Source: Nitrososphaerota archaeon
Lineage (GTDB): Archaea > Thermoproteota > Nitrososphaeria > Nitrososphaerales > Nitrosopumilaceae
DNA length: 32,000 bases
NCBI GenBank assembly: GCA_028867755.1
Contig: JAGWFT010000001.1
Location: 1,131,992-1,163,991 of the forward strand
Direction: 5' to 3'
In this document: one piece after another, positions 2,213 through 27,571 of the stretch
Position numbering within the stretch: the stretch's first letter is position 1
Layout of the letters: each line of letters begins with the position of its first letter
Made by a program: the position numbers and the translations under genes
Notes under the pieces: model-generated
Databases searched by the model: none
Told to the model about the DNA's origin: nothing
Seen by the model: only the letters and a program-made list of their open reading frames with translations

Positions 2213-3280
2213 CTATTTGTCACGTTTGCCTTCAACAAACTCTGTGAAGGCTTTCTTTGCATCAGTGTACGGCATCTGTATTGGAGGATGCTTGAAGCAG
2301 TAAGATGAGATGCTAGTCATAGGACCTGAGAGATTTCTATCTAATGCTATCTTTAGCCCACGTATAGCATCAATCATTATTCCTGCACTGTTATACGCAT
2401 CAATTACCTTAAGCTTTAGATCTAGTTTAATTGGGATTTTACCAAAGTATTTGCCTTCTATGTTGATATAACAGATTTTTTCATTATCAATAAAGTCAAC
2501 ATAATCGCTTGGTCCTATTCTCATTGGAATATCATAATCAGCCATTGCCTTTACTGCACTTGTCTTGCTTATTCTCTTGTCCTCAAGTCTCTCCTCATCG
2601 AGCATGTTGAAAAAGTCCATATCGCCTCCAATGTTCAATTGATATGTGCCGTCGATGAGTACACCTCTATCTACGAAAAGCTTTACAAGCGTTTTATGTA
2701 CTACAGTAGCTCCAAGTTGACTCATCACGTCATCTCCAGCTAGAGGGAGTTTCTTTTCTGCATACATTTGCTGCCATTTTGGTTCTGATGCGATAAACAC
2801 AGGAATTGCGTTAAGAAACCCGATACCTGCCTCAAGAGCTTGACTTGCATAGTTTCGTACTGCTTCTGTGCTTCCAACCGGAAGATAGTTGACAAGCATC
2901 TCTGCACCTGTATCTTGTAATACTTTTTTGACATTAACCTCAGGCTCTGGGGAAGGCGTTACTATACGGCTTAGATGTCTTCCTAGACCGTCTTTTGTAG
3001 GTCCACGCTGTACAGTTATCCCGGTACGAGGAACCTCTGCAACTGTAATAGTATTATTTGGTCTTGCGTATATTGCCTCAGAGATGTCCTTTCCAACCTT
3101 TGTATCTGCCACATCAAATGCTGCCACGACTTCAATATCTCCTGGCTCATACCCCCCCAAGTTGTAAGCAGTCAATCCTACAATATCATTAGGGTTATCT
3201 GAATAGTATTTTGAACCTTGAATAAGTGCAGAAGCACAATTGCCTACACCGGCTATAGCAATCTTGATCTTCTTTCCCAA
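2213..3280 (-). CDS. myo-inositol-1-phosphate synthase (inositol-3-phosphate synthase, short prokaryotic type)
   Basis: 355-aa ORF with N-terminal dinucleotide-binding motif KIAIAGVGNCASALIQG, the LPLAGDDVMSQLGATVVH core, and a family-typical length. The start codon is TTG. A TATAAT-like box lies ~25 nt upstream in the 127-bp gap. Confidence 0.85.
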   Translation of the reverse strand: MGKKIKIAIAGVGNCASALIQGSKYYSDNPNDIVGLTAYNLGGYEPGDIEVVAAFDVADTKVGKDISEAIYARPNNTITVAEVPRTGITVQRGPTKDGLGRHLSRIVTPSPEPEVNVKKVLQDTGAEMLVNYLPVGSTEAVRNYASQALEAGIGFLNAIPVFIASEPKWQQMYAEKKLPLAGDDVMSQLGATVVHKTLVKLFVDRGVLIDGTYQLNIGGDMDFFNMLDEERLEDKRISKTSAVKAMADYDIPMRIGPSDYVDFIDNEKICYINIEGKYFGKIPIKLDLKLKVIDAYNSAGIMIDAIRGLKIALDRNLSGPMTSISSYCFKHPPIQMPYTDAKKAFTEFVEGKRDK

Positions 3281-3407
3281 CTTGACCGACAGCTACCAAA
3301 TTATACCTACATATTAATTACTTGCCATTCATAAGAGCAGTAGATTTCATATCTCAAACTTGATTCCAGTCATTATCTATTTCTATATTCTAGACTATTT
3401 TCCAAAA

Positions 3408-4133
3408 TTAAATAGTATAGATATTTTTTTGATAAATCTCTTTGAACCCTTGTTTCAAGTAGAAATTAACCAATTCGTCTTTACGATATGTTTCAAGCAT
3501 CAACAATTCCAAGTTTCGTTTCTTTACTTCACTTAGAGCAAAGTCAATTAGAGACATGGCAAGGCCCCTCTTTCTCATACTTGGAATTGTTCCAAGACAA
3601 TAAAGCCCCAACATTGAATCTTTTTCATATAATGCCACGCAAGAACTAGCTGATTCATCAACATAGTACTCTATTGACTGGATGGATTTTTTTACTATCT
3701 TATCCACAGATGTGACCCAATCTTGACAATCATATGCATCACAGAATGTTTTTGACCACAACATAGATTCATCGCTAGATATCATATGAATTTTTGTTGC
3801 TTTTGTAGAGTTGGGTGTTTTTACAAGCACGTGTTGAACATCGTAAAGTTTGAAATTTTTTTTGAGTAATTTGTCTTCAAGATCTGCATAATTTAATGTG
3901 TAGATATATGGGGCTGTACCATATTTGGCAAAAAGTGCCAACGCATCGTCTATCATTTTGTCGTTGATGCATGATATGTTTGTGAGCTTGTCAAAAAAGA
4001 CATCATTTGTGAGATCTTGATTGAAAAACAATGTACCACACTGAAGAGGTATAGAATTTGTCAACAGACCAGTAAAATCAAGGTCTATACCTTCTAGTCG
4101 TGATATTAGGTTGTTATTCCCAGTACCTGACAT
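3408..4133 (-). CDS. GNAT-family N-acyltransferase (241 aa, larger than a minimal GNAT)
   Basis: C-terminal acetyl-CoA motif A (GTIPSMRKRGLAMSLIDFAL) is followed by LELLMLETY...FYLKQGF. About 100 aa precede the recognisable GNAT core. ATG 4133 lies 28 nt inside the 3' end of the upstream ligase gene. Confidence 0.7.
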   Translation of the reverse strand: MSGTGNNNLISRLEGIDLDFTGLLTNSIPLQCGTLFFNQDLTNDVFFDKLTNISCINDKMIDDALALFAKYGTAPYIYTLNYADLEDKLLKKNFKLYDVQHVLVKTPNSTKATKIHMISSDESMLWSKTFCDAYDCQDWVTSVDKIVKKSIQSIEYYVDESASSCVALYEKDSMLGLYCLGTIPSMRKRGLAMSLIDFALSEVKKRNLELLMLETYRKDELVNFYLKQGFKEIYQKNIYTI

Positions 4134-5263
4134 ATTCGTTCAAAATCTCTGTAACTGATATTGCTTCCTGCAATTATCTGGGAGCAAATGTTTTCAAATA
4201 TTTCAATTGCTTTTTGAGAATTAAGATCATCGTCTAATGCAGCAAGAAAATCATCTACTAATTTAGAAATTTCCGAGTCAGTTTTTTCTGATGTTTTTGT
4301 GCCGGCAAGATGGATTTTTTCTAAAAGCTGTTTTTTTTCAGCAATTTTATTTTCATCGAAATTCACATCCTTACGATAATGAGTAGAGAAAAGATAAAGA
4401 CGCAATAGGTTTTGCCCATATTTTTGTATCAGATCTCTCGACCATACAACATTGCCAAGCGATTTGGACATTTTTTCACCATTTGAAAGAACAAGGCCTA
4501 CATACATCCACGCTTTGACCGGATTTTCATCTGTTGAAAACATCTTGTATTGGGCTAAATGCGCTTCGTGATGTGGATATGCAAGCTCCCTTGCACCACC
4601 GTGAATGTCATAATTTGTACCAAAGTTTTCCAATGCAACAGTTGTATCTTGCATGTGCCACCATGGAATGCCTTTCCCAAATTTGCTTTTCCATGAAAAG
4701 TCAAAATCCTCAGAACAGTTCCATAACATTATGTCCTCCTGGTTTTTCTTGCTAGGCCCTATATCCAATCTATGAAGTTGGAGTTGAGCCCTAGACTGCT
4801 TAGATAACATACCGTAGGTGTTAATTTTTGAAGTGTCAAGATAGACATTTCCATTTGCATAATATGCAACTTTTTTATTCAACAATTCAGATATGTGACT
4901 CTCCATATAATCAACATAATCTGAAACGTATGCAAGTCGGTTTATGCTTTTGATGTTCAATAAATTTAGATCTTTTGCAAATTCTTGTGCATAGAATTTA
5001 GCAATTGTAGCATAGTCTTTTGATTCATCTTTTGCCTTGTTGAATACATTTTGATTGATATCTGTCATATTTACTAGTACATCAGTTCTGTATCCTCTTT
5101 CGTGTAAATGTCTGCACAAAAGGTCGTACGTAAGAAAAATTCTTGCATGTCCTAAATGAGTATAATCATACAAGGTAGGTCCACAGATGAATACACGTGC
5201 CATATTTTTCTGAAATGGTTCAAAAGTATCTATAACTGAAGAAAATGAATTGAATATTCTCAT
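4106..5263 (-). CDS. cysS: cysteine--tRNA ligase family class-I enzyme, short form (385 aa) lacking the C-terminal anticodon-binding domain
   Basis: ICGPTLYDYTHLGHAR (CysRS-type HIGH region), DIHGGARELAYPHHEAHLAQ, KMSKSLGN, and a DALR-2-like helix FLAALDDDLNSQKA. It aligns by eye along its full length with my recollection of E. coli CysRS but ends ~75 aa early. Assignment as the housekeeping CysRS versus a paralogue is open (see findings). Confidence 0.75.
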   Translation of the reverse strand: MRIFNSFSSVIDTFEPFQKNMARVFICGPTLYDYTHLGHARIFLTYDLLCRHLHERGYRTDVLVNMTDINQNVFNKAKDESKDYATIAKFYAQEFAKDLNLLNIKSINRLAYVSDYVDYMESHISELLNKKVAYYANGNVYLDTSKINTYGMLSKQSRAQLQLHRLDIGPSKKNQEDIMLWNCSEDFDFSWKSKFGKGIPWWHMQDTTVALENFGTNYDIHGGARELAYPHHEAHLAQYKMFSTDENPVKAWMYVGLVLSNGEKMSKSLGNVVWSRDLIQKYGQNLLRLYLFSTHYRKDVNFDENKIAEKKQLLEKIHLAGTKTSEKTDSEISKLVDDFLAALDDDLNSQKAIEIFENICSQIIAGSNISYRDFERICQVLGITT

Positions 5264-5273
5264 GGCGTAATTG

Positions 5274-5543
5274 CTATCTTCCGCCTTGAGATAATATTGG
5301 CGTTAGTGTTACAGTGGAACGAATCTTTGAGATTCTTCGTATCTTGTAAGTCACTATCTCTTCTAAAATGGCATTCGAGTCAGCTTGAATTTTGACAAGG
5401 ATATCATATATCCCATATGTTCCTCTGACTTCTTTTACTTCTGGAATTTTTGCAAGTTCGCTTATGATTTGCGTTTCCGATCCCAAGTCGCAGTTTATGA
5501 GTATGTATAATGTTTCCATGTACACCAATAATATTTGATGCAT
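5274..5543 (-). CDS. stand-alone Lrp/AsnC-type ligand-binding (RAM) domain protein
   Basis: LINCDLGSETQIISELAKIPEVKEVRGTYGIYDILVKIQADSNAILEEIV matches the beta-alpha-beta-beta-alpha-beta RAM pattern, with no HTH domain. The true start is probably the second Met (METLY, 5519), giving ~81 aa. The stop lies 10 nt upstream of the ligase ATG. Confidence 0.65.
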   Translation of the reverse strand: MHQILLVYMETLYILINCDLGSETQIISELAKIPEVKEVRGTYGIYDILVKIQADSNAILEEIVTYKIRRISKIRSTVTLTPILSQGGR

Positions 5544-5559
5544 AAAATGATATCCATGA

Positions 5560-5566
5560 TTTAAAA
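5560..5566. promoter_or_regulatory. central TTTAAAA TATA-like element in a 45-bp divergent intergenic region
   Basis: It is the clearest TATA-like element between the 5543 (-) and 5589 (+) start codons; an AT-rich CATAAAATGA at 5541..5550 is a weaker alternative. The core TTTAAA is its own reverse complement. Its centre is ~26 nt from GTG 5589 and ~20/44 nt from ATG 5543/5519. Confidence 0.3.
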
Positions 5567-5588
5567 GGATGTAACGGCATGATATTTT

Positions 5589-6302
5589 GTGGATAACGAG
5601 ATAACAATTAGAGAGTTAAAACCAATTAACATAGAAGGCGGATTTGTCATAGATGGTTTTCCTTATGCAGGACTTGCCAACGCAATAGCGACAGAATCTT
5701 TGATAAACACAACATCTCAATTCAAATTGGCAGGTGTTCTTGATTCAGAACTTTTTCCTCCAATTAGTATCATAAGAGATGAAACACCTAATTTTCCTGC
5801 AAGAATATTTGTAAATGAGGATCTCAAGGTTGCGGTATTTTCAGCATATTTAACACCCCATGAATCGCTTCACAGAGAGGTTGCAAGAACCATGTTAAAG
5901 TGGGCAAATGATCACAAATGTTCGCTCATAGTAAGCAGTGCAGCTGTAAAGGCTGAAGAAAAACCGTTTGTCATAGGAGTTGCAAGTACAGAAAATGCAA
6001 AGAAACGATTGACAGATTCAGAAATTCCAATACTTAAGAATGGTACTGTCCCCGGCATTCCCGGAATTTTGTTAAATGAAGGCTCCATCACAAACACCAA
6101 CGTAATTGTTCTTTTATACAAAGGCCAAGAAAACGGGCCAGACTTTAGAGCAGGTGCAGAGATTTGTATGGCAATGTCAAAACTTGTCCCTGGTGCAGCA
6201 TGTGATTTCCGAACCTTGATGAGCGAAGCAGAAAACATAGAGCAAAACATGAAGCAGACAGAGCAAGAAGCAGGTCCACTACGAGATGCAATTTACGGAT
6301 GA
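5589..6302 (+). CDS. PAC2-family proteasome assembly chaperone-like protein (PbaA/PbaB-like)
   Basis: The N-terminal pattern IEGGFVIDGFPYAGLANAIATESLIN...FPPISII...PARIF is typical of PAC2/PF09754 proteins. The C-terminus ...DAIYG is an HbYX-type tail. GTG start. Confidence 0.6.
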   Translation: MDNEITIRELKPINIEGGFVIDGFPYAGLANAIATESLINTTSQFKLAGVLDSELFPPISIIRDETPNFPARIFVNEDLKVAVFSAYLTPHESLHREVARTMLKWANDHKCSLIVSSAAVKAEEKPFVIGVASTENAKKRLTDSEIPILKNGTVPGIPGILLNEGSITNTNVIVLLYKGQENGPDFRAGAEICMAMSKLVPGAACDFRTLMSEAENIEQNMKQTEQEAGPLRDAIYG

Positions 6303-6547
6303 GCTACCAAGAACGAGAAATCTCAAAAGATAGCTTGCCAAAACAACTCAGAGTTTTAGATTCTGACGAAGGAGTAAGAATAGAGAGCGAAACAGGATTT
6401 ATTTTTATCAACAAAACATCTAGACGATATTGTATTGACATATCAAAGAATGGTTCTGACGAGTTTTTCTATATGAATAGTGTTGATGACGTACTGAGTT
6501 TTTTAACAAATAAGATGGACGCGTCATCAAAAATTTTCTCATACTAG
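6299..6547 (+). CDS. hypothetical protein (82 aa), translationally coupled to the PAC2-like gene
   Basis: ATGA start/stop overlap with the upstream gene. Coding-like composition. No motif recognised. Confidence 0.45.
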   Translation: MSYQEREISKDSLPKQLRVLDSDEGVRIESETGFIFINKTSRRYCIDISKNGSDEFFYMNSVDDVLSFLTNKMDASSKIFSY

Positions 6548-6566
6548 TTTACTGCAACATATCTAG

Positions 6567-7184
6567 ATGACACCAATACTAGAATTTGCATTGACTGTAA
6601 TTACAATTTCAGTCTCTGGAGTCATGTCTCCAGGACCTCTTTTTGCAGCAAATGTTGCATATGGTACAAGAGGTGGTTGGAAGACCGGAATTAGAATGGC
6701 ATTTGGACATACAATAGTTGAACTTCCACTTGTGATACTTCTTGGAATTGGTGCAATCTCACTTGTGGTCTTGCCACAATTCAGAGAATACACATCAATA
6801 CTTGGTGCTATCAGTCTCTTTGTTTTTTCAGGACTGCAAATTAGAACTGCGATGATGAAATCTTCATCCAGTCAGTTACCAAAACATGGTCCATTTATCA
6901 TGGGAATTTTGTTGAGTGCATTCAATCCGTTTTTCTTGATTTGGTGGTTCACAATAGGCTTTAAACTAATTTCAGATGCATTACTTTTGTACTCATTTAT
7001 TGGAATAGGGATAATGTTTGGGCTCCACATATGGATGGACTATGCATGGTTAGGTACGGTAGGATTTTTGTCTAGTCGCGGAAAAAAGATCCTCTCAACT
7101 AAAAACTACAAGATTTTCATGATTGCACTAAGTGGGGTTCTTGTCTATTTTGGAATAAATTTCTTGATTCAATCTTGGCATTAA
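6567..7184 (+). CDS. LysE/RhtB-family amino-acid exporter
   Basis: 205 aa with about six hydrophobic helices. N-terminal PGP motif (VMSPGPLFAANVAYG) and family-typical size. Confidence 0.7.
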   Translation: MTPILEFALTVITISVSGVMSPGPLFAANVAYGTRGGWKTGIRMAFGHTIVELPLVILLGIGAISLVVLPQFREYTSILGAISLFVFSGLQIRTAMMKSSSSQLPKHGPFIMGILLSAFNPFFLIWWFTIGFKLISDALLLYSFIGIGIMFGLHIWMDYAWLGTVGFLSSRGKKILSTKNYKIFMIALSGVLVYFGINFLIQSWH

Positions 7185-10674: not shown

Positions 10675-11835
10675 TCAGAAATAATCTTTTATCGATTTTT
10701 GATTTCTTGCTTTTTGTAATTTACTTCTTGCAAGCCATTCTTTCTTGCCCACACTTAGGCCCTTGCATACAAGATCCAAGCCTTGTTCAAAATTTGGCAT
10801 TACAGTTGGTTTTTGTTTTAACGCCATCCTTACTCCTTCTCTAACTTGCCAGACCCCTAGAGGAACTGCATATTCTGGCCTTATCTCGCGAAGCACCATA
10901 ACTCCTGCCTGAACCTTGGCTCTCAAGAGATATTCTGCAACAGCAAGCCGCGATGCAAAATGTGCTCCTGCAGTCTCCGGATAGTGTGAAAGTCCCTTTG
11001 CATCTTCAAAATCTGATCCAAATCCAATGTTACCTTCTTGATCGTACCACGCCTCTTGCATCTCAAACATCCATCTGCGTGGAAACATGATTACGCCGTA
11101 CAAATTTCCAAGGTTTTCATAAGTAAAAATCTGGCAGCAATCAATCTCAGAAAAATTCACAATTTCATCAACAATGGATTTAGAAATTATATCGTCAGTT
11201 GCAGTTATGCTCCATTTCGTAGGTACAAGTTTGCGGTCTTTTCCAAACATTCCTATACTGAAACACTTTTGTATTTTGCTTACCTCTATGCCACGATTAT
11301 AAAGTTCAAAGACTGCATCATACGCCAGAACGTCTTTGTCGTAAAATAATCTCTGAATATTCTTGTCTGATGATGAATTTGAGAACTTGGCAGTTTTTAT
11401 TTCTCCAATGGGGCCAAAAGGGGCATTTTCCCCATCTACAAATAGAGAGGGTTTTGTATTTTTTACAAACTCTACTTCAGAATCAGTAGATCTAGAAGAC
11501 ATTGCAAGCTCTTGTAAGCTTTCGATGTATCTGCCCTGAGGGGCTTTTGCTGTAACTGCTTGTATTCCTCTTACTAGTGATAGTCTATAATTTACAATAT
11601 CTTCCAGGCTCTTGCCTATCCAAGATTCTGGCAAGTCCATAGATAACGTGTTACCATGGATTGGAGGCACCATTGGTCCTACCAGTACCTTTGGATACCC
11701 ATAAGATCCAACAAAGACTGACGGAGGACTAGAACCCTCTACATAATTAGAAGAAAATAGATTGGCGTATTTTGACAGATATTCATTCCAGTTAGATTCT
11801 ATAGCCTTTCGTATATCAGAAGCAGTTCTGGACAC
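10675..11835 (-). CDS. nreA: Nre-family DNA repair protein (NreA-like, DUF650/DUF651)
   Basis: The N-terminal signature SSPPSVFVGSYGYPKVLVGPMVPP, the ~386 aa length, and a C-terminal QKSIKDYF PIP box. GTG start. Confidence 0.7.
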   Translation of the reverse strand: MSRTASDIRKAIESNWNEYLSKYANLFSSNYVEGSSPPSVFVGSYGYPKVLVGPMVPPIHGNTLSMDLPESWIGKSLEDIVNYRLSLVRGIQAVTAKAPQGRYIESLQELAMSSRSTDSEVEFVKNTKPSLFVDGENAPFGPIGEIKTAKFSNSSSDKNIQRLFYDKDVLAYDAVFELYNRGIEVSKIQKCFSIGMFGKDRKLVPTKWSITATDDIISKSIVDEIVNFSEIDCCQIFTYENLGNLYGVIMFPRRWMFEMQEAWYDQEGNIGFGSDFEDAKGLSHYPETAGAHFASRLAVAEYLLRAKVQAGVMVLREIRPEYAVPLGVWQVREGVRMALKQKPTVMPNFEQGLDLVCKGLSVGKKEWLARSKLQKARNQKSIKDYF

Positions 11836-12999: not shown

Positions 13000-13920
13000 T
13001 TATACAATAATTGGCCCGCTTCCTACTATTCGTATAGTCTGCGACTCGGGTTTTAGAATCACGCATATATCATTTTTTATAAATGCAACTGGTTTGTTAA
13101 GAGAAAGCTTCATGGGGTTAAGAGATACTATTTTTGCAGCTCTTGTCTGCAGACCTATATTTACAAGAAATGTCTGGTTTTCTGCCACTTTGTCCTTGAA
13201 GAATTTGTTTTGTAAATAATCCAATGCAACATCTTGCATCACATGGATTCCATCACCAATGCACAATTGGTCTCCCCTTTGTACATCATCAGATACAACT
13301 CCCTTTACAGCAAGACCGACTCGTGCTGGAGACACAGCTTCTTCCACCGGATCGTCATGCATTTGAATGGATTTTATTATAACCTCGTCTCCTTTGGGCA
13401 ACAGTTTGAGTTTATCATATGCTTTGATTTTTCCTTGTGCTACCTTACCAAGTATAACCGTGCCTACCCCTTTTACATCAAAACAATGATCAATTGGAAT
13501 CCTAGCATCGCCTTCATTTGATACAGGTTCCAAAGAATCCATTTCCTTTTTGAGATCAGATAGTTCTACTAGTTTGTATTGTTCCACAACGGTTCCTTTT
13601 ATCATAAGAAGAAGTTTTTCATGATCTACTTCGTAAGAATGAGTTAGTAATCCCTTATTCTTTTTGAGAACATCAAGTGCAACAATTTGTTCTCCTGTGA
13701 ATTTGTCAAGCTTAGAGACACAAAAAATAACATATTCACCCATGTTTATGGCTTGAAGAAGCGGTTGGATCTTTTCTGGAAAGCCTGTTGGCATGGTCCA
13801 TGTTTTTACAAAGCCTGCATCTTTTTTATCATATATTGTAAGATCAGTAGCAGTGCCTTTTTTGCCAAAATCTTTGGCTATTGATTCATCTCCAAGCAAT
13901 ACATAATTGATTGATTTCAT
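13000..13920 (-). CDS. EF-Tu/SelB/aIF2-gamma-like protein with degenerate G domain (pseudo-GTPase)
   Basis: Clear EF-Tu domain-2 barrel (ARIPIDHCFDVKGVGTVILGKVAQGKIKAYDKLKLLP...VKGVVSDDVQRGDQL). The N-terminal domain lacks GxxxxGK[ST] (VLLGDESIAKDFGKKGT), lacks DxxG-H (TMPTGF) and lacks NKxD. Confidence 0.6.
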   Translation of the reverse strand: MKSINYVLLGDESIAKDFGKKGTATDLTIYDKKDAGFVKTWTMPTGFPEKIQPLLQAINMGEYVIFCVSKLDKFTGEQIVALDVLKKNKGLLTHSYEVDHEKLLLMIKGTVVEQYKLVELSDLKKEMDSLEPVSNEGDARIPIDHCFDVKGVGTVILGKVAQGKIKAYDKLKLLPKGDEVIIKSIQMHDDPVEEAVSPARVGLAVKGVVSDDVQRGDQLCIGDGIHVMQDVALDYLQNKFFKDKVAENQTFLVNIGLQTRAAKIVSLNPMKLSLNKPVAFIKNDICVILKPESQTIRIVGSGPIIV

Positions 13921-17029: not shown

Positions 17030-17287
17030 ATGAATGAGAAACTTCTAATATTTGGCGCACTTGCCGCAGCAGTGGTAGTTATGACTACAGCGGTTTTTCC
17101 TTTCTGGAATCTCATTCCTAATACAGTAACCGAAGTAGTTACAGTAAAACAAGCAGACCAAAGCGGTTGCTATGTTGAAACCCATGATCATTTTGTCATA
17201 AAGATACCTCCATGCAATGCACAACCCGGACAGAATATTACAGCAACATTTGATGCAAAAGTAAGAGATCGTGAAAAACAGATCTAA
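17030..17287 (+). CDS. small N-terminally anchored hypothetical protein (85 aa)
   Basis: One N-terminal TM helix (LLIFGALAAAVVVMTTAVFPFW) followed by a ~55-aa domain with two Cys. The stop overlaps the pth2 stop by 4 nt. Confidence 0.4.
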   Translation: MNEKLLIFGALAAAVVVMTTAVFPFWNLIPNTVTEVVTVKQADQSGCYVETHDHFVIKIPPCNAQPGQNITATFDAKVRDREKQI

Positions 17288-17640
17288 AGCAATTTCAAAC
17301 TTTGAGTTACCTTATCAATCATATCTTCAGGTGCAGGGCCTATTGAGATACAAGTTACAGTCCCAGGCGCAATCTGAGTATGACCTGCATCTGTTACCTC
17401 AGACCATGGCAAATTAAGAGAGATGGCGTGTTTTTTTACATCTTCCAACTCAGATAAGCTAGAAACTTTGAGTACTACTTTTTCTTGGCCCAACTCTTCC
17501 CATTCAGTATACCATTCCCTATGGGATTTCCTCACATGTTCTGCACCTAAAACACATGCATGCCCCACTTGAGCTGCAATCTTTCCAGTCCCCATACCGA
17601 GGTCCTTTCGTACTACTATTACTTGCTTAATGTTACCCAT
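17284..17640 (-). CDS. pth2: archaeal-type peptidyl-tRNA hydrolase (Pth2)
   Basis: KQVIVVRKDLGMGTGKIAAQVGHA...KVVLKV...VTDAGHTQIAPGTVTCISIGP is the Pth2 signature. I place the start at MGNIKQ (ATG 17640), not the track's 17718, because the upstream 26 codons are non-homologous. Confidence 0.85.
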   Translation of the reverse strand: MGNIKQVIVVRKDLGMGTGKIAAQVGHACVLGAEHVRKSHREWYTEWEELGQEKVVLKVSSLSELEDVKKHAISLNLPWSEVTDAGHTQIAPGTVTCISIGPAPEDMIDKVTQSLKLL

Positions 17641-17771
17641 ATCAATTTGAAATAATAACCCAGTACATGTTAAACTTTTGAATTGAAAGTATTTTTCACT
17701 GTAAAAAGCAAAATACATTCACAAGATCTTGTTTTGTACAACGTTAGATGTTGATATAAATAAATGAGAAA

Positions 17772-22920: not shown

Positions 22921-24018
22921 ATGAGTGACTGGGATCTAATGATGCCTGGCATGGGTTTGACTGCAATAGGTCTTGGAGGAGTGATTTTGTCTTACTTGGG
23001 AATTGCCAATACTTTCCTCACAGGAATGCAGGCACTTTCAGGTTTAACCATGTTTATGGGCATGGTGTTCTTGTCTGCCGGAATTCTAAGCGGTGGTGTT
23101 TCAACTAGTCCAAGAGCCAAAGCAACAACTCTTGTAATATTTGGAATTGCTGGCTCTGTTGGAGCTTATGCAATAAGTCTGAACACAGTCATAACATCAT
23201 TGCCCAGATTCGTAGGAGTTTTAATTATCATAATCATACCAACCGTTGTCATAGCATTTTCAGCTATGAAGGCACAGAAATATTTCAGGCCAATAACTGT
23301 GATATTTTTGGCTGCCATGGCAGTAGGAGTTGGTTCGTTTACAGCGTTTGGATTCATAGGACCTGGTGCTCAATTCTCATTGCATTCACAAAACATGACC
23401 AATGCTACAGAAGCAGCTAGTTCGACTTTACCAACAGCCCCTGTGATAACAGTCAGCATACCAGTAAATGCATCCATCAAAGGAAATCCCAACTTTACAC
23501 CAAATATTGTTACAGTTCCAAAAGGCGACATAATAGAATGGACCAATAACGACACAGTACCTCACACTGTTACAAATGCACCAGATGGTGCAATATTTGA
23601 TTCTAGCCTAATTGCGGCTGGTAAGACATACTCACTTGACACATCAAAACTAAACGCAACAGAATACGATTACATGTGCACGGTACACCCCTTCATGACA
23701 GGTAAGATAGTAATAACTCAGCCAGCTGTTGCAAATGTGACAATCTCAAAAGGAGCATCTACACAAAGTGCTGGACAAAAATACTTTGATCCGGCAAGTC
23801 TTTCTGTCAAAGTTGGAACAACTGTAACTTGGACCAACCAAGACAGTGCAGCACATACTGTTACAAGTGGTGATCCAAGTGCAGGACCCTCTGGTACATT
23901 TGACTCTAGTCTAATCAAACCAGGCAACACATTCAAACATGCGTTTACAACTGCTGGTACAACATCATACTTCTGTACAGTTCATCCATGGATGACTGGA
24001 AAAGTAATAGTAGGATGA
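22921..24018 (+). CDS. membrane-anchored protein with two tandem amicyanin/plastocyanin-like type-1 copper domains
   Basis: Five predicted N-terminal TM helices, then a linker rich in N-x-S/T sequons. Two cupredoxin repeats each have an HTVT His plus a C-x2-H-x2-M site (YMCTVHPFMTGKIVI and YFCTVHPWMTGKVIV). Confidence 0.8.
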   Translation: MSDWDLMMPGMGLTAIGLGGVILSYLGIANTFLTGMQALSGLTMFMGMVFLSAGILSGGVSTSPRAKATTLVIFGIAGSVGAYAISLNTVITSLPRFVGVLIIIIIPTVVIAFSAMKAQKYFRPITVIFLAAMAVGVGSFTAFGFIGPGAQFSLHSQNMTNATEAASSTLPTAPVITVSIPVNASIKGNPNFTPNIVTVPKGDIIEWTNNDTVPHTVTNAPDGAIFDSSLIAAGKTYSLDTSKLNATEYDYMCTVHPFMTGKIVITQPAVANVTISKGASTQSAGQKYFDPASLSVKVGTTVTWTNQDSAAHTVTSGDPSAGPSGTFDSSLIKPGNTFKHAFTTAGTTSYFCTVHPWMTGKVIVG

Positions 24019-25537: not shown

Positions 25538-27571
25538 CTACAGAACAAAAATAGCAACAAATGCAGATACGAAAACTATTGCTACTGTGTTTAACAATTT
25601 AATGACAGTGTTTAGCGCAGGTCCTGCGGTGTCCTTGTAAGGATCTCCTATTATATCTCCAACAATTGCTATCTTATGTTCTTCAGTTCCCTTTTGCTTG
25701 TTAATTTCCATGTATTTTTTGGCATTGTCCCACGCACCACCAGTATTTGCCAGATGGAAGGCCAAGAAAATTCCTGTAATTACTGCACCCATTAAAAGTC
25801 CAACTACTGCAGATGGGCCCAGAATTATACCAAGTACTATCGGTGCTGCAATTGTTATTGTTGCAGATTTCCAAAGCTCACGCAATGAAGCTACTGTTGC
25901 GACATCAACACATTTTGCATAGTCAGGTTTTGTCTCGTGGGTCAAAATTCCAGGAGATTCTTTGAATTGTCGTCTTACTTCTTCTACCATTTTAGAAGCT
26001 GCTCTTGCTACTGCAGAAATAAGCTGGCTTGTGATAAAGAACGGCAACAGACCTCCTACAAGTAATCCAATAACTACTGCGGGATTTGAAAGACTATAAT
26101 CAAAAACGTGATGAAATACTTTTCCTGCTTCATATTGAAATGCTTGAATCATAGCTAGCGCAGCTAGACCTGCACTTGCAATTGCAAAACCTTTAGTCAC
26201 AGCCTTTGTAGTATTTCCTACTGCATCAATTTCATCTGTAACTTTACGATTTTCTTCGCCCATACCTGTCATCTCTACAATTCCACCTGCATTGTCACTG
26301 ATAGGACCAAATGCATCTATACTCAACACGATTCCTGCAAGGCTTAGCATTGCCATAGCTGTAAGCGATGTGCCAAATATTCCGTAAAGTGTGGCTTGTG
26401 TAGGATCTGGTGCTGCAGACGATGCCAATACATACGATGTAGCCAGAGCTATAACAATGGCAATCATGAATGGACCTGTTGAGCGCATTCCTTGTATGAT
26501 TCCCATCAGTGTAAGTGATGCATACCCCCATTTTGCAGAGGCCGCAATTTCTTGGACTGGCTTGAATCTATAGCTTGTAAAATAATCTGTAATTCGCTGT
26601 ATTACTGGTACCAGAATAACGCCTATCACAGTACTGCCAAATAACGCATATGCAATCTGGGTATGACCTAGAAAGAAATATGTGAAAACAAAATTAAGTG
26701 CAATTGCTATTGCAGCAGAAACATAAAATGCATTGGCAAGTGGCTTGTTTACGTCTGTCATCTTTCTTGGAGTTATGGTTGCAATGCCGATGATAGATGC
26801 AAATAATCCTGAAGCACCAACTAGCATAGGATAAAACAAGTTCTGAGGAGTTCCAATCAGCCCAGCAATCAGTAACGATGCAAGCATTGTTACAATATAT
26901 GATTCATAAATATCAGACCCCATACCAGCCGCGTCACCTACATTATCTCCCACGTTATCAGCAATCGTTGCGGGGTTTCGCGGATCATCTTCTGGGATAT
27001 TTGCTTCTACTTTTCCTACCAAGTCTGCACCCATGTCTGCAGCCTTTGTGAAGATTCCACCACCAACTCTGATAAACAATGCAATCAAGCTAGCACCTAT
27101 ACCAACTCCAGCAATTGTAATAGGACTTGGAAATGCAAAATAGAGTAAACTCATGCCCAAAAGAGCCATAGCAGGCACGGCAAGACCTACTGTTGCCCCA
27201 CCCCTAAATGCAAGAGCAAAGGTATGTCCAAGGCCTTTCCCAGATGCATTTGCAGCTCTAACTGCTGCCTTTACTGTAATTTTGAGTGCGATTAATCCAG
27301 CAATAGCAGAAAGCCCAGCACCTACAGCAAAAGCAATGCCGTTGGTAGATCCAATTGCAGCACCAATCAAGACTGCAAGACCTATGGCTATAGGAATAAC
27401 AATTCTAAATTCTCTTCTTAAAAACGCCATTGCGCCTACCCCTACCGCATTTGAAATATCCAGCATCTGTTGAGTTCCAGGTTTTTGTTTAGATACCCAT
27501 GTTGCAAGTACTGCTGCAATGATAAAAGATACGATTGACGCACCGACAGGAATCATTTCTTTTAGCGTCAT
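25538..27571 (-). CDS. hppA: membrane-bound H+-translocating pyrophosphatase, K+-independent type
   Basis: 677 aa with ~16 TM helices. Motifs: GGIFTKAADMGADLVGKVE, DNVGDNVGD, GDIIGDPYKDTAGPALN. GNTTKAVTKG has Lys (not Ala) at the position that distinguishes K+-independent enzymes. Confidence 0.92.
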   Translation of the reverse strand: MTLKEMIPVGASIVSFIIAAVLATWVSKQKPGTQQMLDISNAVGVGAMAFLRREFRIVIPIAIGLAVLIGAAIGSTNGIAFAVGAGLSAIAGLIALKITVKAAVRAANASGKGLGHTFALAFRGGATVGLAVPAMALLGMSLLYFAFPSPITIAGVGIGASLIALFIRVGGGIFTKAADMGADLVGKVEANIPEDDPRNPATIADNVGDNVGDAAGMGSDIYESYIVTMLASLLIAGLIGTPQNLFYPMLVGASGLFASIIGIATITPRKMTDVNKPLANAFYVSAAIAIALNFVFTYFFLGHTQIAYALFGSTVIGVILVPVIQRITDYFTSYRFKPVQEIAASAKWGYASLTLMGIIQGMRSTGPFMIAIVIALATSYVLASSAAPDPTQATLYGIFGTSLTAMAMLSLAGIVLSIDAFGPISDNAGGIVEMTGMGEENRKVTDEIDAVGNTTKAVTKGFAIASAGLAALAMIQAFQYEAGKVFHHVFDYSLSNPAVVIGLLVGGLLPFFITSQLISAVARAASKMVEEVRRQFKESPGILTHETKPDYAKCVDVATVASLRELWKSATITIAAPIVLGIILGPSAVVGLLMGAVITGIFLAFHLANTGGAWDNAKKYMEINKQKGTEEHKIAIVGDIIGDPYKDTAGPALNTVIKLLNTVAIVFVSAFVAIFVL

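Follow-up and report, generated by a model that had tools for sequence, protein, structure and literature searches.

What is made at a locus where a cysteinyl-tRNA synthetase (CysRS)-family gene, too short to encode an anticodon-binding domain, overlaps the gene of a GNAT-family acetyltransferase and is followed on the same strand by a gene for myo-inositol-1-phosphate synthase (MIPS)? The question is raised by a 32-kb stretch of contig JAGWFT010000001.1 (GC content 38 %), the whole of which is referred to below as the window. Its best protein match, from a metagenome-assembled genome (MAG) labelled Thaumarchaeota, is 97 % identical, and Nitrosotalea sp. TS follows at 83 %, marking the organism as a Nitrosotalea-like ammonia oxidiser. 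The initial annotation of the window described four serial minus-strand genes, encoding a RAM-domain protein, the short ligase, the GNAT protein and MIPS, and proposed that together they form a mycothiol-like thiol module. The layout itself stands in full: 10 nt separate the RAM stop codon from the ligase ATG, the ligase gene ends with a TAA (4108-4106) 28 nt deep inside the GNAT open reading frame (ORF), which begins with the ATG at 4133, and a 127-bp spacer separates the GNAT gene from MIPS. A fifth relevant gene, an ORF of 82 codons on the plus strand, had been overlooked. The interpretation advanced here, to which about an even chance is given, is that an accessory cysteine-activating ligase works with an acetyl-CoA-dependent tandem GNAT, that the 82-aa protein is likely their partner, and that MIPS has no part in the system.

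The gene arrangement is not a matter of chance, since the ligase gene is followed by the GNAT gene in 73 of 79 related genomic loci from ammonia-oxidising archaea (AOA). These loci were fetched by a scan that reached Nitrososphaera at 40 % identity; they come from Nitrosotalea, from unclassified Nitrosopumilaceae, among them a marine NP-iota MAG, and from Nitrososphaera. Five of the six exceptions are contigs that end at the ligase. The overlap of 28 nt is identical in N. devanaterra, and the order is kept in Nitrososphaera, where the GNAT protein is only 27-33 % identical to that of the window. The pair also occurs outside the AOA. In two loci from other Thaumarchaeota, a 399-aa CysRS (L083) and a 437-aa CysRS that has a DALR_2 domain (L085) are each followed, after a gap of about 60 nt, by a full-length homologue of the GNAT protein (E 2e-20 and 5e-23, respectively), and in a Thermoprotei MAG a 407-aa CysRS gene is overlapped over 35 nt by the gene of a 259-aa GNAT. 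No GNAT gene was present where MAGs with a Thaumarchaeota or Nitrososphaerales label encode a long CysRS (469-471 aa). The ligase-GNAT pair is thus a real unit, and both the tight coupling of the two genes and the larger-than-minimal size of the GNAT, which had been pointed out at the start, are confirmed.

Across the TACK archaea, the most constant neighbour of the short CysRS is the small protein. ORFs of 102-112 aa directly beside the short CysRS in four loci (L083, L085, L087 and L088) are mutually homologous (E down to 1e-26), and the 82-aa protein of the window is homologous to them, giving a family of 82-112 aa with the motif LDxDEG[IV]RI...IFI...Y, whose C-terminal Tyr is invariant in every lineage (the C-termini read FSY, FAY, WSY, SIY, WLY and FRY). 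The AOA form has 82 residues and lacks an insert of about 12 residues found in the other lineages. In 57 AOA loci, the small gene lies about 1 kb from the ligase in the opposite orientation, coupled to a PAC2-family gene. The AOA gene shares 4 nt with the end of the PAC2 gene, and in the window it is oriented away from the ligase operon. An independent test, in which metagenome contigs were scanned starting from the small protein with two query sequences, gave 40 Bathyarchaeia-like loci, at 38 of which a short CysRS of about 410 aa is encoded tail-to-tail with the small protein at a distance of 2-5 nt; the remaining two are contig ends. As these 40 loci represent one lineage, the strength of the association lies in its recurrence over five deep lineages with differing gene orientations. 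The small protein was not seen at long-CysRS loci. It matches no Pfam or NCBIfam model, and its single-sequence AlphaFold (AF2) model was unusable, with a predicted local distance difference test (pLDDT) score of 56. The idea that it is a split-off C-terminal anticodon domain of CysRS was rejected at the sequence level by hhalign, which, against 167 long CysRS, returned a probability of 3.9 % for the last 125 residues and 1.1 % for the full length. The small protein is likely a third partner of the ligase-GNAT pair. Ligase, GNAT and small protein constitute an old archaeal gene association that is apparently undescribed; no description of the link between the short CysRS and the small protein across TACK archaea was found in the literature searched.

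Table 1. Features of the window around the ligase-GNAT pair
Feature	Position	Strand	Evidence
Short CysRS-family ligase, 385 aa	4106-5263	-	PF01406, 265 bits; TIGR00435, 297 bits
Tandem GNAT, 241 aa	3408-4133	-	Weak Pfam GNAT matches, AF2 model, fold matches
Small conserved protein, 82 aa	6299-6547	+	Homologous to ORFs beside short CysRS elsewhere
Stand-alone RAM (Lrp/AsnC ligand-binding) domain protein	5274-5543	-	PF01037, 45 bits
MIPS	2213-3280	-	PF01658, 103 bits; TIGR03450, 402 bits
PAC2-family (proteasome assembly chaperone-like) gene	5589-6302	+	PF09754, 92 bits; TIGR00161, 105 bits
GNAT-MIPS spacer, 127 bp	3281-3407	-	TATA-like elements; site of an opposite-strand deoxyhypusine synthase gene in most relatives

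The first description of the ligase as a CysRS-family enzyme that lacks the C-terminal anticodon-binding domain is borne out by its domain content. A Pfam scan finds the class I CysRS catalytic domain, and the cysS model TIGR00435 is covered only from position 1 to 375 of 466, at a score below the cut-off of 340 bits (the AOA representatives P0241 and P0242 reach 312 and 293 bits). In Pfam and NCBIfam scans, there was no match to PF09190 or PF23493, so the DALR_2/CysS_C region is missing. Retained are the catalytic Rossmann fold, the connective peptide (CP), the stem-contact fold and the start of the helical bundle, with only about 60 residues beyond the stem-contact fold; relative to canonical CysRS (TIGR00435, the E. 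coli structures 1LI5/1U0B and the long archaeal forms), about 90 C-terminal residues are gone, and with them the alpha/beta anticodon domain and the greater part of the helical bundle. AOA orthologues are all 385-386 aa long, and the short form is therefore a fixed lineage trait. The HIGH motif (as HLGH) and KMSKS are kept in all AOA members, as are, in the ligase, the equivalents of E. coli Cys28, Trp205 and His234 in the zinc/cysteine pocket. By its sequence, the ligase appears to keep everything needed for cysteinyl-adenylate formation. Unlike in canonical CysRS, the fourth zinc-ligand position, Glu238 in E. coli, is His in the ligase and Asp, Ile or Leu in Nitrososphaeraceae, and it is joined by pocket-adjacent changes, so that R202I, G204W, E208Q and E238H (E. 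coli numbering) set the protein apart. MshC, the CysRS-derived ligase of the mycothiol pathway, differs in this respect, as it has Cys231 and retains R/G/E at positions 202/204/208; the AOA counterparts are Asp, which is the archaeal norm, and I/W/Q. Two candidate markers were set aside. The Asp at the E. coli Cys209 position was ruled out as the mark of a paralogue, since GWHIEDT is the norm in all archaeal CysRS examined and is also present in the full-length CysRS of Methanobacterium, and the net charge of the tRNA-facing regions proved uninformative as a discriminator between CysRS and MshC.

The kinship of the ligase with CysRS rather than with MshC emerges from profile, structure and tree alike. 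It scores 297 bits against the cysS model and 216 bits against the MshC model TIGR03447, whose cut-off is 485, and, among solved structures, 224-230 bits against CysRS and 157 bits against MshC. For a neighbour-joining tree (177 sequences, 316 columns, 100 bootstraps), sequences were supplied by a phmmer search of 1.84 billion representatives. In it, the Nitrosopumilales-type AOA ligases form a clade with 100 % support, nested among short proteins from Nitrososphaeraceae, Aigarchaeota and a hot-spring archaeon, within an enclosing clade (62 % support) of 37 members, all of them short (350-437 aa) archaeal proteins. Some members of that clade, from Bathyarchaeia, Thermoprotei and non-AOA Thaumarchaeota, score above the cysS cut-off and carry the name cysteine--tRNA ligase, and the sister group of the clade consists of long canonical archaeal CysRS. 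M. smegmatis MshC and the MshC-like representatives branch outside the archaeal short clade. The loss of the anticodon domain in this clade is therefore independent of that in MshC and, because a whole clade of archaeal CysRS shares it, is not diagnostic of an MshC-like function. Short archaeal CysRS such as P0246, P0249, P0254 and P0463 resemble the AOA ligases in clade membership, missing domain and small-protein neighbour, and three of them (P0249, P0254 and P0463) have a homologous GNAT downstream as well.

Where the AOA ligases differ from these relatives is in their divergence. Their mean distance to E. coli CysRS is 1.39-1.60 (other short forms stand at 1.06 and long forms at 0.91), and their distances to every outgroup are 40-60 % larger than those of other short or long archaeal CysRS. 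Of 67 positions that are at least 92 % conserved in 54 other archaeal CysRS, 14 are changed in the Nitrosopumilales type and 17 in the Nitrososphaeraceae type, a number similar to the 15 of 67 changed in MshC. By contrast, the non-AOA GNAT-linked short forms have 0-1 changes, P0254 has 6, and these proteins pass the cysS cut-off; the AOA forms are strongly diverged and apparently accessory. Since 13 of the altered positions are common to both AOA orders and were then fixed, the pattern is read as a functional shift that would have taken place in the AOA ancestor, followed by conservation. A clue to the origin of the gene comes from locus L090 (JGI Ga0315312_1000030, 5001-7081), where a 470-aa long CysRS adjoins genes for LysE and SMC/ScpA/ScpB, the LysE being 28 % identical to that of the window (6567-7184; E 4e-23). 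This neighbourhood recalls the AOA order SMC-ino-GNAT-cysS-1-...-lysE and hints that the short AOA gene may occupy the ancestral CysRS position, with the core AOA CysRS as the newcomer.

Evidence that such a core CysRS exists beside the ligase comes from published tables. The window ligase is an orthologue of NVIE_003280 (cysS-1) of N. viennensis, with the same ino, GNAT, lysE and albA neighbours. With families defined by 35 % identity and 70 % coverage, NVIE_003280 falls in FAM001532, which among three species is present in N. viennensis only, and Nmar_0967 and NFRAN_0108 (cysteine--tRNA ligase, arCOG00486) fall in FAM000731, represented in each of the three (PMC12448741 supplement). The family numbers in Abby et al. 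2020 differ from those of the biofilm paper. As both families occur in N. viennensis, that species has two CysS-type genes, and as N. maritimus and N. franklandus are without FAM001532, the GNAT-linked type is lacking there. In keeping with this, Nitrosopumilus, Nitrosarchaeum and Nitrosocosmicus are not represented among the 79 loci, even though the scan extended to Nitrososphaera at 40 % identity. Because the second CysS family of N. viennensis is common to N. maritimus and N. franklandus, the ligase is probably not the housekeeping CysRS. The notion of a second CysRS alongside the ligase thus holds for N. viennensis; no second CysRS-like region was seen in the window or in any fetched locus, and the core AOA CysRS (Nmar_0967 type) was not found among the collected proteins by way of NadE context, amino-acid composition or cluster names. 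Long CysRS forms labelled Thaumarchaeota come from other, heterotroph-like MAGs, and P0254 (399 aa, labelled Nitrosopumilus sp.) was rejected as a second AOA CysRS, as it belongs to a rare lineage with GNAT and small-protein neighbours of its own (its relatives comprise three clusters at at least 87 % identity, the next following at 47 %). Transcripts of NVIE_003280 are few, at 24-39 transcripts per million (TPM), 2271st in the rank column of the table (PMC12448741 supplement). Those of Nmar_0967 are very low too (TPM of about 4-7, 1673rd and 1699th in two rank columns), while its neighbour Nmar_0968 is among the highest expressed genes (PMC12448741 supplement); such low expression of Nmar_0967 is odd for a sole housekeeping synthetase.

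Two other explanations bear directly on these data. By the first, which is rather unlikely though the most probable of the alternatives, the ligase is the lineage's compact working CysRS, sole or main, which would charge tRNA-Cys in spite of the missing anticodon-binding domain, perhaps with the 82-aa protein helping in trans, and the GNAT is an auxiliary (e.g. in acetylation regulation or cysteine homeostasis) or just a neighbour. The greater closeness to CysRS than to MshC, the intact catalytic motifs, the basic stem-contact fold, the nearest relatives being short forms named cysteine--tRNA ligase that pass the cut-off, and the positional descent from an ancestral CysRS suggested by the LysE/SMC neighbourhood of L090 all agree with it, and a second CysRS in Nitrosotalea is deduced rather than directly seen. 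Against this explanation stand the second CysS family of N. viennensis, shared with two species that lack the GNAT-linked type, the faster evolution with changes at 14-17 of the 67 invariant positions including a zinc-ligand position, the score below the curated cysS cut-off and the low expression in N. viennensis. By the second explanation, the pair would be a redundant relic without distinct function, drifting to loss after the AOA had gained or kept a second CysRS. Its patchy distribution (it is missing from N. maritimus and N. franklandus), fast evolution and low expression are what a relic might display. However, the ORFs are intact and all catalytic motifs have been kept over the Nitrosopumilales-Nitrososphaerales split, the 13 shared and then fixed changes speak for a shift under purifying selection and not for decay, and the gene overlap and GNAT motifs are retained in 73 loci, so that a relic is improbable.

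With the accessory ligase as the preferred reading, attention turns to its partner. The GNAT protein is predicted, from an AF2 model with a pLDDT of 93.6 built with 45 homologues, to be a compact tandem GNAT in which an N-terminal pseudo-GNAT domain precedes an active C-terminal GNAT domain. Sequence profiles say little: Pfam matches are weak (E down to 2e-5) and confined to residues 150-233 in the C-terminal half, and an NCBIfam scan (E <= 0.01) gave weak matches to four generic acetyltransferase models only, mycothiol synthase not being among them. With 284 matches, the family is small, and it is confined to these archaea. Its best matches in the PDB are the tandem GNATs 3frm (function unknown), VipF, MAB_4324, WecD and 4ius, which share with it the pseudo-GNAT N-domain, the active C-domain and TM-scores of 0.6-0.7; they differ in being only 8-14 % identical and, according to their descriptions, in having no linkage to an aminoacyl-tRNA synthetase, with substrates that are unrelated or not assigned. 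The MshD structures 2c27 and 1ozp follow at ranks 14-15 (E 2e-7 and 6e-7, TM-scores of 0.58-0.63, 10 % identity), so that the comparison of the GNAT with MshD holds for the tandem fold class and fails for the sequence family. Three motifs are invariant across the GNATs of AOA, non-AOA Thaumarchaeota and Thermoprotei, namely G-x-YC-x-GT, the acetyl-CoA loop R-x-x-G-x-[A/G] and Y-x-x-x-GF. In the window protein, the pyrophosphate loop for acetyl-CoA reads R187-K-R-G190-L-A192, and the motif B Tyr stands in Y225-x-x-x-G-F.

These motifs favour acetyl-CoA over aminoacyl-tRNA as the likely donor. The initial annotation had offered, as an alternative, that the GNAT might be an aminoacyl-tRNA-dependent transferase of the Fem or L/F-transferase kind, drawing on Cys-tRNA from the ligase. 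In the form weighed here, which also takes in Sbb17-like enzymes, it would attach the cysteine to a peptide, lipid or metabolite. The tight gene coupling, the resemblance of a two-domain GNAT to Fem and aminoacyl-tRNA-dependent synthases, the presence of Sbb17 and Sba18 among the fold matches and the look of the non-AOA partner ligases as working CysRS would all suit such an enzyme. However, Sbb17 and Sba18 come only at ranks 40-48 (E of about 2e-5) and the acetyl-CoA tandem GNATs match far better (E 2e-11 to 2e-7). Fem-type enzymes are not known to have the R-x-x-G-x-[A/G] acetyl-CoA loop and the Tyr signature. Because the acetyl-CoA loop is invariant in every lineage, an acetyl-CoA-dependent transferase is favoured over a Fem-type one, and the aminoacyl-tRNA-dependent transferase ranks as the least probable of the explanations weighed here.

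Several side observations concern the GNAT protein and a possible link with tRNA. Six of its cysteines (C32, C55, C131, C136, C165 and C179) are invariant in the 45 AOA homologues, and C179 alone, which lies in the YC-x-GT strand immediately ahead of the acetyl-CoA loop, is kept in all non-AOA homologues; the conserved cysteines could form a metal or redox site, or provide a catalytic Cys. The window encodes a Pth2 peptidyl-tRNA hydrolase (17284-17718, minus strand; PF01981, 148 bits). N-acetyl-aminoacyl-tRNAs are classic substrates of Pth, and the enzyme would be relevant if the GNAT acted on Cys-tRNA. A 306-aa SelB/EF-Tu-like protein (13000-13920, minus strand), in which only domain 2 was detected beside a degenerate G domain and which scores 73 bits against selB (TIGR00475), well below the cut-off, fits the thaumarchaeal aSelBL family and is encoded about 8 kb from the short CysRS. 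The aSelBL protein has been proposed as a possible binder of Cys-tRNA (Atkinson et al. 2011; PMC3037878). As N. maritimus encodes aSelBL but not the short ligase, no specific link between the two is implied.

The third component of the proposed thiol module, MIPS, does not belong to the block in which it had been placed. In 51 loci, an opposite-strand gene for deoxyhypusine synthase (DHS) lies between GNAT and MIPS, as in L026 (7852-8796; PF01916, 335 bits), and MIPS directly follows GNAT in only 10 loci and the window. No DHS gene occurs anywhere in the window, and L012, L013 and L046 are likewise without one between GNAT and MIPS. MIPS is a conserved neighbour, near the pair in 63 of the 79 AOA loci and in both AOA orders; three loci with enough room have no MIPS. 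Upstream of the MIPS TTG in the window, by 20-40 nt, are the A/T-rich, TATA-like elements TTAATAT and GGTATAAT, in agreement with the TATA-like box first ascribed to this gene. In N. viennensis, the order ino (NVIE_003260), GNAT (NVIE_003270), cysS-1 (NVIE_003280), lysE, albA is that of the window, and log2 expression is 9.4 for ino, 4.5 for GNAT and 5.4 for cysS-1, placing ino about 16-30 times above the pair (PMC7785015 supplement). In N. maritimus, the DHS and MIPS genes are neighbours (Nmar_0648 and Nmar_0649), and no CysS-type gene adjoins them (PMC12448741 supplement), and the non-AOA ligase-GNAT pairs have no MIPS within 10 kb. Given the interposed DHS, the discordant expression, the MIPS of N. 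maritimus without the pair and the non-AOA pairs without MIPS, MIPS is a separate transcription unit and a bystander to the pair. The enzyme matches the actinobacterial 'mycothiol_INO1' equivalog TIGR03450 over 355 of 355 positions, at a score below its cut-off of 638 bits. It is part of core archaeal-lipid myo-inositol biosynthesis in 44 AOA genomes (PMC7490402 supplement), and its product most likely serves inositol lipid head groups.

A mycothiol-like pathway, in which RAM, ligase, GNAT and MIPS would yield an N-acetyl-cysteinyl conjugate on an inositol-containing scaffold, is accordingly judged very improbable. What speaks for it is the frequent nearness of MIPS and its place directly downstream in the 10 loci and the window, the absence of an anticodon domain as in MshC, the inclusion of MshD in the GNAT fold class and the seemingly accessory nature of the ligase. 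Against it, the ligase lies outside the MshC clade, fails the MshC model and has pocket changes that differ from those of MshC, the GNAT matches no mycothiol-synthase model at E <= 0.01, and MIPS is core in AOA and unlinked from the pair in the ways just listed. Moreover, the annotated ORFs of the 32-kb window include no GT4/MshA-like or LmbE/MshB-like gene, and the AOA system differs further from that of mycothiol in its overlapping pair and its linked third small gene. According to one review, archaea have neither mycothiol nor MSH genes (PMC7278568), and ergothioneine has been named as the thiol whose genes AOA gained (Abby et al.; PMC7554672). On the mycothiol-type genes for which the initial annotation pointed, with reserve, to AOA genome papers, the literature searched contained nothing relevant. 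There is no evidence linking the acceptor to inositol or mycothiol.

The preferred reading, i.e. an accessory ligase acting with an acetyl-CoA-dependent tandem GNAT, can be put as a sequence of steps. An old archaeal CysRS clade would have lost the C-terminal anticodon-binding domain, and its AOA copy would have become a fast-evolving accessory beside a core CysRS. The ligase would form Cys-AMP and pass the cysteine to an acceptor that may no longer, or not only, be tRNA-Cys read via its anticodon; it may be tRNA-Cys recognised by other features than the anticodon, or a small-molecule or protein amine. The GNAT would then acetylate the product with acetyl-CoA, most simply at the free alpha-amine of the transferred cysteine, while the 82-aa protein may serve the short CysRS as a docking or specificity subunit, and the RAM protein may, as a lineage-variable regulator, tie expression or activity to amino-acid levels. 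This two-step logic would be that of MshC and MshD, evolved independently, and it is plausible because an accessory ligase without an anticodon domain is coupled to a tandem GNAT, the very pairing of a CysRS-derived ligase with a tandem GNAT seen in the mycothiol system. The bolder form of the idea, that short CysRS, 82-aa protein and tandem GNAT make up a new N-acetyl-cysteinyl thiol or cofactor pathway in Nitrosotalea and Nitrososphaera, independent of mycothiol, with a dedicated small subunit of the short CysRS TACK-wide, is speculative and considered unlikely.

A number of observations weigh against the preferred reading. The stem-contact fold of the AOA ligase is as basic as in true CysRS, and the non-AOA GNAT-linked short CysRS are canonical at the invariant positions and pass the cysS cut-off. 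The association with GNAT therefore arose with a seemingly working CysRS, an origin that fits a tRNA-linked role as well as a small-molecule one. No GNAT is encoded within 4 kb at the 40 Bathyarchaeia-like loci that have the small protein, and no acceptor-making enzymes are linked to the ligase-GNAT pair. Finally, a second CysRS is shown by published tables only for N. viennensis; for the window organism we infer it.

If the preferred reading is correct, AOA of soil and acidic habitats carry a second cysteine-activating enzyme with a non-housekeeping job, which would be the second independent case, after MshC, of a CysRS recruited into a two-enzyme module with a tandem GNAT. More broadly, a TACK CysRS clade that has no anticodon-binding domain and is accompanied by a small protein raises the question of how tRNA-Cys is recognised, or whether it is a substrate. 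Among cultured strains, N. viennensis, with the module, and N. maritimus, without it, offer a contrast. For annotation, the automatic label 'cysteine--tRNA ligase' may mislead, and adjacency to MIPS is no signal of mycothiol.

The stand-alone RAM gene, a variable component, is the first of the RAM-ligase-GNAT transcription unit, with a TTTAAAT element upstream. Its identification as a RAM-domain gene ending 10 nt before the ligase is upheld, with a small correction to its start: the conserved part of the protein begins at the second ATG (5519, METLYIL...), which is probably the true start, giving a protein of 81 aa. The gene is present in the window, L003 and L005 and is missing from L001, L002, L004, L006, L007, L010, L060 and the Nitrososphaera loci. 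As several of the closest relatives (80-84 % ligase identity) are without it, it has been gained or lost on short time scales. In L002, L004, L006 and L060, about 95 nt separate the PAC2 gene from the start of the ligase. The PAC2 gene of the window is oriented divergently to the RAM-ligase operon, and its place upstream of the ligase is conserved in Nitrosopumilales-type loci; it is context only. Elsewhere in the window are genes that are ordinary for acid-soil AOA, encoding an archaeal Nre protein (10675-11835, minus strand), a two-domain cupredoxin/plastocyanin-like protein (22921-24018, plus strand) and an H+-translocating pyrophosphatase (25538-27571, minus strand; PF03030, 758 bits).

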